IMG/VR virus record: IMGVR_UViG_2718218360_000002
Source: a virus
Taxonomy: Duplodnaviria; Heunggongvirae; Uroviricota; Caudoviricetes
Reading direction: 5' to 3' (one strand)
DNA: 64,000 nucleotides
In this document: positions 42,001 to 45,000 of the stretch, piece after piece
How positions within the stretch are numbered: the first letter of the stretch is position 1
Layout: the number at the start of each line of letters is the position of its first letter
Position numbers: made by a program

Positions 42001-45000
42001 GCTCTGTTAAAAATTTAATCCTTAACCGGAGGTATATCAATGTCAAACGCACAGAAAGTTATTAACGCTGAAAAATATAACGAGTGGGTGAAAAAGTTCT
42101 CAGAGCAGATTTTTAAAATTACTGGCGACGAGAATGCGGCAAAAAATGAATTAGAGCCGTGGACACCTGAAGGTGTCGACCCAAATTATTGCTGGTGGGA
42201 TGTTGATCCAGTTGATGCTGCAAATGAAGCTATGAGTTATCACAACGATTAATGTCAGGAGGCCGCCCGAAAGGGCGGTAATGAAAAGTGACTGAATTAA
42301 CCAAAGAGAAATTAATCGAAGAAGCCAAATTAAAAATAGCGATTGCGAAATGCTACCCCAATTCAGGGATGGCACGGGTAGAGGGCGAGTTATTCAAAAT
42401 TGCACTGGCATCGCTGGAAGCAGAACCGATAGCGTGGGAATGCGGTGAAAACATAATCCTGTTTAACCCTGACACAGTTGAAGCATACGCAAAACGTGCG
42501 GAAATATCACCTAAACCACTATTCTCCGCGCCGCCAGCGCTGGTAGTGCCTGATAAGTTGCCGCGTGAATACAGAAACGGTTGGCCTCTTGCGTATAGTG
42601 ATTATGCTGAAGGCTGGAACGACTGCCGCGAAGCCATGCTTCAGGGAGATAAATCATGATTAATCGTATCAAGCTGGAGCACATCCTCGAATATGCCAGG
42701 CAGCAGAGGCATATTGGTCAGCATTGTAAAATTCCACCAGGAGATATGGTTGAAATCATGGAGATTGCCATGCGCAAGGCTGGCAACTCTCCGGTAACTC
42801 CGGATGGTTGGATAAGCTGTAGTGAGCGAATGCCGAATACCAAAACAGCCGTTCTTGTTGCCGTGGAGTTTGACAGGAAAGGTGACTGGCGAATGAAATG
42901 GGCTACTTACATCCCGGGGCATCCTGACGCTAATGATGGGTGGATAATTCCTGGTGCGTCGTGGAAACCGTCACACTGGATGCCGCTACCAGAACCGCCG
43001 CAGGAGGTGCGCCAATGATCTGGCCTGAAGCCTTTGCAATTACAGGCGTTGCTATAGCTATTGATTTTTTAGTATATGTTATTTGTCGGTGGGGGTAAAA
43101 ACGTTCGCCGGGATTCACACCAAAGGAGGGAATATGTCGGATGATATTTCACTGGCAATGGAAGGTGCGCTGGCTGTTATTGCTGTTGTGGGCGTTTACT
43201 GCCTGGTTGTGTTTTTGATGGATCGACTAGGGAACTGAATTCATTACGATATGGGAATTCCCATATCGGGTAAAAACGGTTTGCGGTAAAGCGAGAGTTA
43301 AGTAGAATTGCTGCGGGTGCTTGAGGCTATCTGCCTCGGGCATGAACACCAACGGCAGATAGAGAAAAGCCCCAGTTAACATTACGCGTCCGGCAAGACG
43401 CTTAACATTAATCTGAGGCCATATCTATGCTCTACACACGTAGGTTAGCCTCTTACGTGCCGAAAGGCAAGGAGAAGCAGGCTATGAAGCAGCAAAAGGC
43501 GATGCTAATCGCCCTGATCGTCATCTGTTTAACCGTCATAGTGACGGCACTGGTAACGAGGAAAGACCTCTGCGAGGTACGAATCCGAACCGGCCAGACG
43601 GAGGTCGCTGTCTTCACAGCTTACGAACCTGAGGAGTAAGAGACCTGGCGGGGGAGAAATCCCTCGCCACCTCTGATGTGTCAGGCATCCTCAACGCACC
43701 CCACTTAACTCGCTTCGGCGGTTTTTTGTTGTTTATTTTCGGTGAGCGTGATGCATCTGGTTGTACCGATGTGGCTGGCTGATTCTGTTATTCAGGTGGT
43801 TTATTGCTGTTGATTGGCATGTCTTCACGGCTAGAATCGAGGCTCTTAAGTAGCGCGCAGGGATAAGAGGGATGGCCCCCATAAGAGGGATGGCCCCCAT
43901 AAGGGGAGGTGTTTATAGTTCATGGGATTTTTGTTATGAACGATAAGGAATTAATTGCTGCGCTTTCTATACCAGGTAATTATGAAGTAATAGTTCTTGG
44001 GAATGGTGAGTTTATCGTAATGCCATTGCCATCTGATGTTATTCTGATCAGCAAAGAATCGCATGCGGATTCGGTCAGTTACTTCAGCATTAAAAGAGAC
44101 TAGATTATAATGCTGTAGTAAAGCCAGCCTGAACAACTGGCGTCTGTCGCACCATTACGAGGATAGTAGTGGTGCATTACAAGAAACTTAACAATTCTGA
44201 TAATTCAGCCGTCTTTGCCAGCAGGCACGGGCGGTGTTCTCATGCATTCAAATCTGACTGGTTCCAGCATGACCCATGCACTGAAGAACAGGCCGAATGG
44301 CTGATTCAGTGCTACCGCAGGCGTGGTTACGAGTTTCAGAAAGATCTCAGCTTCGATCGTCGTCACTGGATAATCTCCGCCAGGCTCCCTTATTCCGAAC
44401 GCCCACCGCGTCCGTCCCGCACATTCCAGCAGCGCATCTGGAGGTAACGTGCGGGTATTACTTCGACCTGTTCTGGTACCGGAACTCGGTCTGGTTATCG
44501 TTAAGCCAGGCCGTGAATCAATGTCAGTATTCCATAACGGCAGAATATTGGTGGAGCCGGAACCGAAAAACATGCGCGGTCTGCCGTCCGGAGTCGTTCC
44601 TGCCGTTCGCCAGCCGCTGGCAGAGGATAAAACATTACTGCCATTTTTCAGCGATGAGCGGGTTATTCGTGCAGCAGGTGGTGCAGGTGCACTGTCTGAC
44701 TGGTTATTACGTCACGTGAAATCCTGCCAGTGGCCACACGGCGATTATCATCACAGCGAAACAGTCATTCACCGTTATGGTACCGGCGCGATGGTGTTGT
44801 GCTGGCACTGCGACAACCAGCTGCGCGACCAGACATCAGAATCACTCGATCAACTTGCTCAGCAGAATCTGGTTGCCTGGATGATTGATGTCATCCGTCA
44901 CGCAATAAGCGGTACGCAGGAGAGGGAGTTATCGCTGGCCGAATTATCCTGGTAGGCGGCCTGCAATCAGGTGGTGGATGCACTACCTGAGGCAGTAGCG

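Follow-up and report, generated by a model that had tools for sequence, protein, structure and literature searches.

A probable hok/mok/sok toxin-antitoxin module of the hokD/hokW lineage in an ompW-integrated prophage of Escherichia coli O157:H7

Introduction

Does a short Hok-family reading frame in a prophage of Escherichia coli O157:H7 stand alone, or does it belong to a complete antisense-controlled toxin-antitoxin (TA) module? The locus lies in the IMG/VR virus record IMGVR_UViG_2718218360_000002 (Caudoviricetes), from which a stretch of 64,000 nucleotides (nt), called the window here, was analyzed. An initial annotation made from the sequence alone had proposed a hok/sok-type antisense-controlled module within the prophage. 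Our analysis supports that proposal. Window positions 43281-43727 very probably form an intact hok/mok/sok type I TA module of the hokD/hokW lineage, carried by an ompW-integrated lambdoid O157:H7 prophage. The evidence is the family membership of the toxin, a match to the Rfam leader model, a mok frame, a predicted fold-back of the messenger RNA, and 94.7% DNA identity over 43271-43701 to the mokW/hokW/sokW locus of phage 933W. As a finding this is ordinary: existing annotation already calls the gene hokD, its family is a textbook example of type I TA systems, and the near-identical hokW-sokW has been characterized. The gain is in annotation, as RefSeq marks the toxin coding sequence alone and the antisense RNA (Sok), mok and all the regulatory boxes are now placed.

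To place these elements, the locus was aligned with mokW/hokW/sokW of 933W (AF125520), a Rac-type phage fragment in which mok and hok are annotated (Rac442), hokD of E. coli K-12, and an IncFII plasmid locus of the R1 type. For variation, 160 prophage loci from IMG/VR were sampled whose Hok proteins are 92-100% identical to the window Hok; the variant counts come from about 150 of them.

The toxin gene and its prophage

The window encodes a 51-amino-acid (aa) open reading frame (ORF) that the initial annotation had assigned to the Hok family and credited with a strong ribosome-binding site. Both points were borne out.

43484-43639, plus strand: hok toxin gene (HokD, 51 aa), with the Shine-Dalgarno (SD) sequence AAGGAG at 43469-43474, 9 nt before the ATG

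The ORF matches Pfam PF01848 (HOK_GEF) along the whole profile (positions 1-42 of 42), with E=1.2e-23 and a score of 82.9 bits where the cut-off is 22, and PHROG 251, 'MokW-like host killing' (2.8e-33). An NCBIfam Hok subfamily model scored it below the cut-off (48.5 vs 73 bits). The protein is identical to K-12 HokD (b1562) at 51 of 51 residues and to HokW of phage 933W at 47 of 51 (92%). Identity to the Hok of plasmid R1 is 42%; the Hok encoded by the IncFII plasmid locus in our alignment is identical to the R1 sequence used for this comparison. In O157:H7 genomes that are 100% identical here, RefSeq/PGAP places WP_000813254.1, 'type I toxin-antitoxin system toxin HokD', at the same position. 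HokD has served as a toxic control (10.1101/2025.08.07.668861). The gene also contains a UACG motif at 43622-43625, where codon 47, UAC, is followed by G.

Positions 43000-43950 are 100% identical to many O157:H7 chromosomes, for example that of FRIK2455 (NZ_CP015843.2). The window consists of two parts, the end of one prophage, with tail genes, nleA, nleG and espM1, followed by a lambdoid prophage beside an ompW fragment. The genes for the head-tail connector, tail completion and major tail proteins are identical in these two adjacent prophages. The second prophage begins with integrase, excisionase, exonuclease, dicB, a repressor/cro-like pair, ydaT and the replication genes, and continues with several uncharacterized small genes, a DUF551 gene, hokD, a DUF968 pseudogene, rusA, an antiterminator, the lysis genes and terminase. 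The hok locus therefore belongs to the early-right region, with the replication genes on one side and the RusA/Q-like genes on the other, and its orientation is that of its neighbors.

The hok messenger RNA

The initial annotation had described structured, RNA-like regions on both sides of the toxin ORF, namely inverted repeats upstream and, downstream, the sequence ggcgggggagaaatccctcgcc and cgcttcggcgg with a T-run. All of these were found, and they fall within a single predicted transcript with the following elements.

43281-43308, plus strand: putative hok promoter, with -35 TTGCGG (43281-43286), a 16-nt spacer and -10 TAGAAT (43303-43308)
43315-43326, plus strand: translational activator element (tac) at the 5' end of the hok mRNA, pairing with 43689-43701
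43316-43335 and 43354-43373: 5' inverted repeat, seen in the sequence
43374-43413: hairpin of the upstream structured region
43646-43669, plus strand: 10-base-pair (bp) hairpin, ggcgggggagaaatccctcgcc, directly 3' of the hok stop codon in the minimum-energy fold
43689-43701, plus strand: fold-back inhibitory element (fbi), CCUCAACGCACCC, complementary to tac
43709-43727, plus strand: probable end of the transcript, the cgcttcggcgg with T-run, which forms a short hairpin with a UUCG loop ahead of T6, from sequence and fold

The promoter stretch is conserved in 933W, and its -10 is present in Rac442 as well. Transcription would start at about 43315, the position that aligns with the 5' end of the R1-type hok mRNA and with position 1 of the Rfam model. 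That model, RF01794, matches the leader at 43315-43489 over its full length (positions 1-157) with 111.7 bits, compared to a gathering score of 59, and E=1.4e-24. Although its name is 'sok antitoxin', RF01794 aligns to the sense strand of hok, as far as the hok AUG, so the model describes the hok leader and not Sok. Matches to RF01794 thus mark a hok leader, and the true Sok is to be sought on the opposite strand within the matched stretch.

The 411-nt stretch from 43315 has a predicted folding energy of -165.8 kcal/mol (z=-5.5), and none of 100 dinucleotide shuffles did as well. In the minimum-energy fold, tac and fbi form 12 bp interrupted by one bulged C, with pair probabilities of 0.95-1.00. 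The fbi sequence is unchanged across 85 distinct loci. Fold-back between the 5' and 3' ends is also predicted for the R1-type, 933W and Rac442 loci; in the R1-type locus the sequence differs and yet is complementary (GGCGCUU/AAGCGCC). The hairpin after the stop codon is kept in K-12 hokD, Rac442 and 933W, and the R1-type locus has a comparable G+C-rich hairpin.

mok and the switch boxes

Upstream of hok, the leader contains a second reading frame and the boxes that in known systems govern its translation. The definitions and roles of tac, fbi and the upstream and downstream complementary boxes used here are those of PMC9841398.

43365-43373, plus strand: upstream complementary box (ucb, or anti-SD), AAAAGCCCC
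43414-43418, plus strand: mok SD, UGAGG, about 9 nt before the mok ATG
43427-43639, plus strand: mok frame of 70 codons, read in the hok frame and ending at the same stop, from the ORF list; it corresponds to mokW as annotated in 933W
43447-43451, plus strand: downstream complementary box (dcb), GCCUC, overlapping the Sok -10 on the opposite strand

The mok SD is unchanged in 29 leader types. In the full-length fold it is sequestered: ucb pairs with the mok SD region (43415-43419), giving what would be the closed form, and the hok SD is likewise within a hairpin. The open form is the Rfam consensus onto which the sequence aligns, with tac paired to ucb and GAGGC (43414-43418) to GCCUC (43447-43451). 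RNAalifold over the 29 leader types gave three compensated pairs, all in the Sok hairpin; covariation is this sparse because the sequences are too similar. A 1-nt insertion in Rac442 moves mok into another frame and leaves Hok unchanged, so the conserved feature appears to be translation through the frame and not the peptide that it encodes.

The antisense RNA

We located Sok by carrying over the sokW misc_RNA coordinates of AF125520 through a gap-free alignment (offset +41770).

43365-43435, minus strand: predicted Sok RNA of about 71 nt, consisting of a single-stranded 5' tail, a long hairpin and a 3' end rich in U
43442-43470, minus strand: Sok promoter, with -35 TTGCCT (43470-43465), a 17-nt spacer and -10 TAACCT (43447-43442)

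The predicted Sok folds with -29.7 kcal/mol (z=-4.7) and leaves its first 9 nt unpaired. Both the mok SD and the mok ATG lie inside its target, 43365-43435, so that Sok would cover the ribosome-binding site and start codon of mok. The initial annotation had suggested looking for a small antisense RNA over 43400-43500. The RNA predicted here partly overlaps that interval, but its span lies further to the left, and the promoter at 43442-43470 occupies part of the remainder.

The Sok promoter is identical to that of sokW in 933W/Sp5 and collinear with TTGCGC-17-TATCCT of the R1-type locus. In the study of hokW-sokW, primer YO-421 changes exactly this -10 in the 'pro-less' sokW, and the resulting construct lost protection against HokW; supplying sokW in trans partly restored it (PMC8621323). 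A Sok promoter mutation also falls in dcb (PMC9841398), consistent with the overlap of the two elements. Mapping onto R1 and hokW-sokW suggests that this copy transcribes Sok, and equally the hok mRNA.

Proposed mechanism

We infer how the module would work by mapping its sequence onto the plasmid R1 and hokW-sokW paradigms. The weak promoter at about 43281-43308 would make a hok mRNA of about 413 nt, whose 5' end (tac) would fold back onto its 3' end (fbi). In this closed form ucb would hold the mok ribosome-binding site and a hairpin that of hok, so that the RNA would be neither translated nor bound by Sok. Slow trimming from the 3' end would remove fbi, after which tac could pair with ucb and the target hairpin of mok SD and dcb could form. 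The refolded RNA would then be either translatable or a target for Sok. The free 5' tail of Sok would pair over the mok SD and start codon, blocking translation of mok and the coupled translation of hok and exposing the duplex to RNase III. Should the supply of Sok stop, as it does in the Sp5 homolog upon RecA-dependent prophage induction, the pool of stable mRNA would be translated, and the 51-aa Hok would insert into the inner membrane and depolarize or lyse the cell. For this copy, 3' processing, cleavage by RNase III and toxicity in this host would be expected by analogy with the same two systems.

A hypervariable segment at the 5' end of Sok

Variation among the sampled loci is concentrated in one short segment, and elsewhere the transcript hardly varies.

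43420-43441, plus strand: hypervariable segment of 22 nt, covering Sok nt 1-16 and the 6 nt between the Sok -10 and start, and containing the mok ATG

Column entropy along the locus peaks sharply at 43420-43439. At 43420-43441 the mean pairwise difference per site is 0.30. Third codon positions of hok have 0.04, the remaining non-coding parts 0.03-0.09, and fbi 0.00. The stretch from the mok SD to dcb occurs in 29 variants among the approximately 150 loci; about ten are common, and most of the commoner ones are found with several Hok variants. The mok ATG is kept in 28 of these 29 types. The window Sok and SokW follow the same pattern, as their six differences in 71 nt all fall in the first 16 nt. 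For the first 20 nt of Sok, the predicted duplex has -37.7 kcal/mol with the cognate target and -17.6 kcal/mol with the non-cognate (SokW) one.

Of 5426 complete E. coli genomes, 4705 have sequences like hok, and an O157:H7 genome has about seven such places. Four pairs of loci in our IMG/VR sample came from the same genome: two pairs differ in Sok type, one has the same type, and one was unreadable. Among the matches listed, no RefSeq genome had both the window locus and hokW-sokW. The five chromosomal Sok RNAs of K-12 give no protection against R1 hok (PMC9841398).

We tentatively propose that 43420-43441 is a fast-evolving specificity cassette made up of the 5' recognition tail of Sok and the first mok codons; the proposal may be right, though we do not favor it over its contrary. 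The hypervariability suggests distinct Sok specificity types and would fit selection for different specificities among co-resident modules. Part of the variation could also stem from relaxed constraint or from recombination between old lineages. We did not find the cassette idea stated in the literature searched. Provided that there is no cross-reaction between types, every prophage of a polylysogen might retain a toxin that is triggered independently of the others, and among type I TA modules the Sok types would then be comparable to incompatibility or immunity groups. The segment could bear on how co-resident hok/sok modules avoid cross-talk and on the design of prophage-specific probes or knock-downs.

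Weighing the alternatives

Several observations weigh against an intact module at this locus. Consensus scanners run over 42900-44000 called neither the hok nor the Sok promoter, at a simple sigma-70 threshold, nor the terminator. The hok promoter was missed because it matches 8 of 12 consensus positions and the Sok promoter because it matches 7 of 12; promoters and terminator were therefore placed by homology. The terminator stem is weaker here than the 5-bp stem of CCCGC-UUCG-GCGGG in K-12 and Rac442. A ViennaRNA fold of the 3'-truncated mRNA gave a different local 5' hairpin in place of the 'open' tac/ucb structure of Rfam and the literature, so we do not claim the open form from folding. 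The host prophage also carries pseudogenes: in the RefSeq annotation the DUF968/HNH-like gene (44449-45498) has an internal stop and the portal gene is frameshifted. As a consequence the prophage may not be inducible, and any role in helping lysis would be limited. Lastly, the portion of 10.1101/2025.08.07.668861 that summarizes earlier work states that chromosomal hokA, hokB and hokC gave no post-segregational killing and were suggested to be inactive.

Most of these points would suit a silent relic of the kind represented by several chromosomal hok loci in laboratory E. coli: a locus complete in sequence that has no current function and no longer fires, because its promoter is weak, its terminator weakened or its prophage not inducible. 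The copy of hokD in K-12, truncated just upstream of its SD, fits such a fate. However, every box is intact in the window, and over 85-150 related loci there is little or no change in fbi, tac, the mok SD or the Sok promoter, which argues for purifying selection. The Sok promoter is identical to that of the functional sokW and the toxin to the toxic HokD, and one chromosomal copy of R1 hok is enough to kill in the absence of Sok (PMC9841398). We consider a relic improbable. Still less probable, to the point that we give it very little credence, is that toxicity comes from the 70-aa in-frame Mok-Hok extension (43427-43639) and not from the 51-aa Hok. The shared frame and stop would allow it, as annotated for mokW, but the Rac442 insertion breaks the frame without touching Hok, one locus has ACG in place of the mok ATG, and the first mok codons are hypervariable. 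In addition hok has its own strong SD, and the 51-aa HokW expressed alone is toxic (PMC8621323).

An intact module that makes the 51-aa Hok thus remains our reading, and the question becomes what it does for the phage. It could help lysis, retain the prophage or exclude other phages. Prophage accessory ('moron') regions commonly carry defense genes, and on that general ground the module might act in anti-phage defense or superinfection exclusion, through abortive infection when a phage shuts down host transcription, and not in lysis or retention. R1 hok/sok lowers the plating efficiency and plaque size of T4, according to the summary of that work within PMC8621323. No feature of the window tells defense from the other roles, and in the closest studied homolog, hokW-sokW, the trigger is RecA-dependent induction and phage release is doubled. 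A defensive role in place of lysis or retention therefore seems rather unlikely to us.

Neighboring small ORFs and other features

The initial annotation had noted two short hydrophobic ORFs near hok as possible small membrane peptides. Both are present; the coordinates it gave for the second are exact, while the first, which it had put at 43016-43099, lies one position earlier.

43015-43098, plus strand: 27-aa hydrophobic ORF, its ATG overlapping the DUF551 stop codon as ATGA, with AGGAGG 7 nt upstream
43134-43238, plus strand: 34-aa hydrophobic ORF, PGAP hypothetical protein WP_001278450.1

For the 27-aa ORF, 90 phage records and 29 of the loci L001-L087 from our set have homologs with 50-63% identity in which the frame of 27 codons is preserved. 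Their hydrophobic core varies, and the WPEA and ICRWG ends that enclose it are conserved. The ORF is directly upstream of the hokW promoter in 933W and often abuts the hok promoter in other phages. A 181-bp module containing the 34-aa ORF is found in 673 of 5426 E. coli genomes, and the 34-aa type is present in 22 of the loci L001-L087; here too diverged homologs keep the frame. Homologs of the 34-aa ORF turned up in E. coli genomes and IMG/VR loci only, and a tblastn search with it against the phage collection gave no match. In a search for distant DNA similarity around this ORF, the only match was 39 bp at the palindrome described below, in PPompW phages. Pfam, PHROG and NCBIfam searches returned no family for either ORF. 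As their diverged homologs keep the frame, both are probably real genes, and the initial reading of them as small membrane proteins is probably correct. No connection to hok emerged for either. We also considered them as parts of the TA module and rejected this, as they occur within 1.5 kb of hok in only 29 (27-aa ORF) and 22 (34-aa ORF) of the loci L001-L087.

Between the 34-aa ORF and the hok promoter lies a perfect 22-bp palindrome, CGATATGGGAATTCCCATATCG, at 43247-43268, with an EcoRI site at its center. The window has no second copy, and chance would give 0. Of 80 related prophage loci, 9 have the palindrome in the corresponding position, as do PPompW phages. No T-run follows CGATATGGGAATTCCCATATCG, so it is not an obvious terminator. 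A 34-nt direct repeat with 71% identity links 43169-43202, inside the 34-aa ORF, to 43774-43807, just past the hok terminator. A short ORF at the second copy (43742-43813) would encode a similar 'LA..V..VVYC' stretch, and the repeat may be a decayed paralog or a chance match. Further downstream, an 18-nt unit, ATAAGAGGGATGGCCCCC, is duplicated exactly in tandem at 43863-43898. This duplication falls downstream of a promoter-like site at 43810-43837 (TTGATT-16-TAGAAT) and upstream of a 55-aa ORF (43936-44103; PHROG 34610).

Three other known prophage small RNAs in the window pass their Rfam gathering scores: DicF at 36833-36884 on the minus strand (76.7 bits), STnc100 at 48416-48616 on the plus strand (150 bits), and the anti-GcvB small RNA AgvB at 48619-48680 on the minus strand (96.5 bits). 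A permissive Rfam scan of 42900-44100 found, besides sok, sub-threshold matches at chance level alone, such as isrK at 20 bits.

Comparison with known hok/sok systems

The closest relative is hokW-sokW of 933W and Sakai Sp5, with the same architecture over the whole transcript. Its tac, ucb, Sok hairpin, Sok promoter, dcb, hok SD and fbi are identical to those of the window, and the toxin differs at four C-terminal residues. Like the window locus, hokW-sokW is preceded by a DUF551 gene and a 27-aa ORF. 933W has no counterpart of the 172-bp upstream insert (43099-43270), which carries the 34-aa ORF and the palindrome, and it has no terminator hairpin. The two also differ in phage position, as the window locus lies between the replication and Q genes whereas that of 933W is near the right end on the complementary strand. 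In 2021 hokW-sokW was experimentally shown to be a type I TA system, with HokW toxicity relieved by sokW in partial dependence on RNase III. Mitomycin C led to loss of SokW, RecA-dependent production of HokW, localization of HokW to the membrane, and about twofold more phage release. Smaller hokW RNAs were possibly 3'-processed forms, a point left open in that study (PMC8621323).

Plasmid R1/IncF hok/sok (parB) has in common with the window the gene layout, the regulatory logic, the Rfam leader family, a collinear Sok promoter and a predicted tac/fbi fold-back. It differs in being plasmid-borne and acting by post-segregational killing, and its sequence is only distantly related. In R1, mok is in a different frame from hok, whereas the two are in frame in the window. 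The window Sok hairpin is also the longer one, with a 16-nt insertion relative to the Rfam consensus.

In K-12, hokD (relF) lies in the Qin cryptic prophage, so that, like the window copy, it sits in a lambdoid prophage. The toxins are identical, the coding sequences differ by one synonymous change, and the 3' untranslated region, fbi and terminator are nearly identical. Homology of the K-12 sequence to the window ends about 20 nt upstream of the hok ATG, and beyond that point K-12 has relBE sequence (relE). The K-12 copy is therefore without the hok promoter, tac, ucb, mok and the Sok gene, all of which the window has. The window thus shows what the truncated hokD of K-12 would have looked like before relBE replaced its control region.

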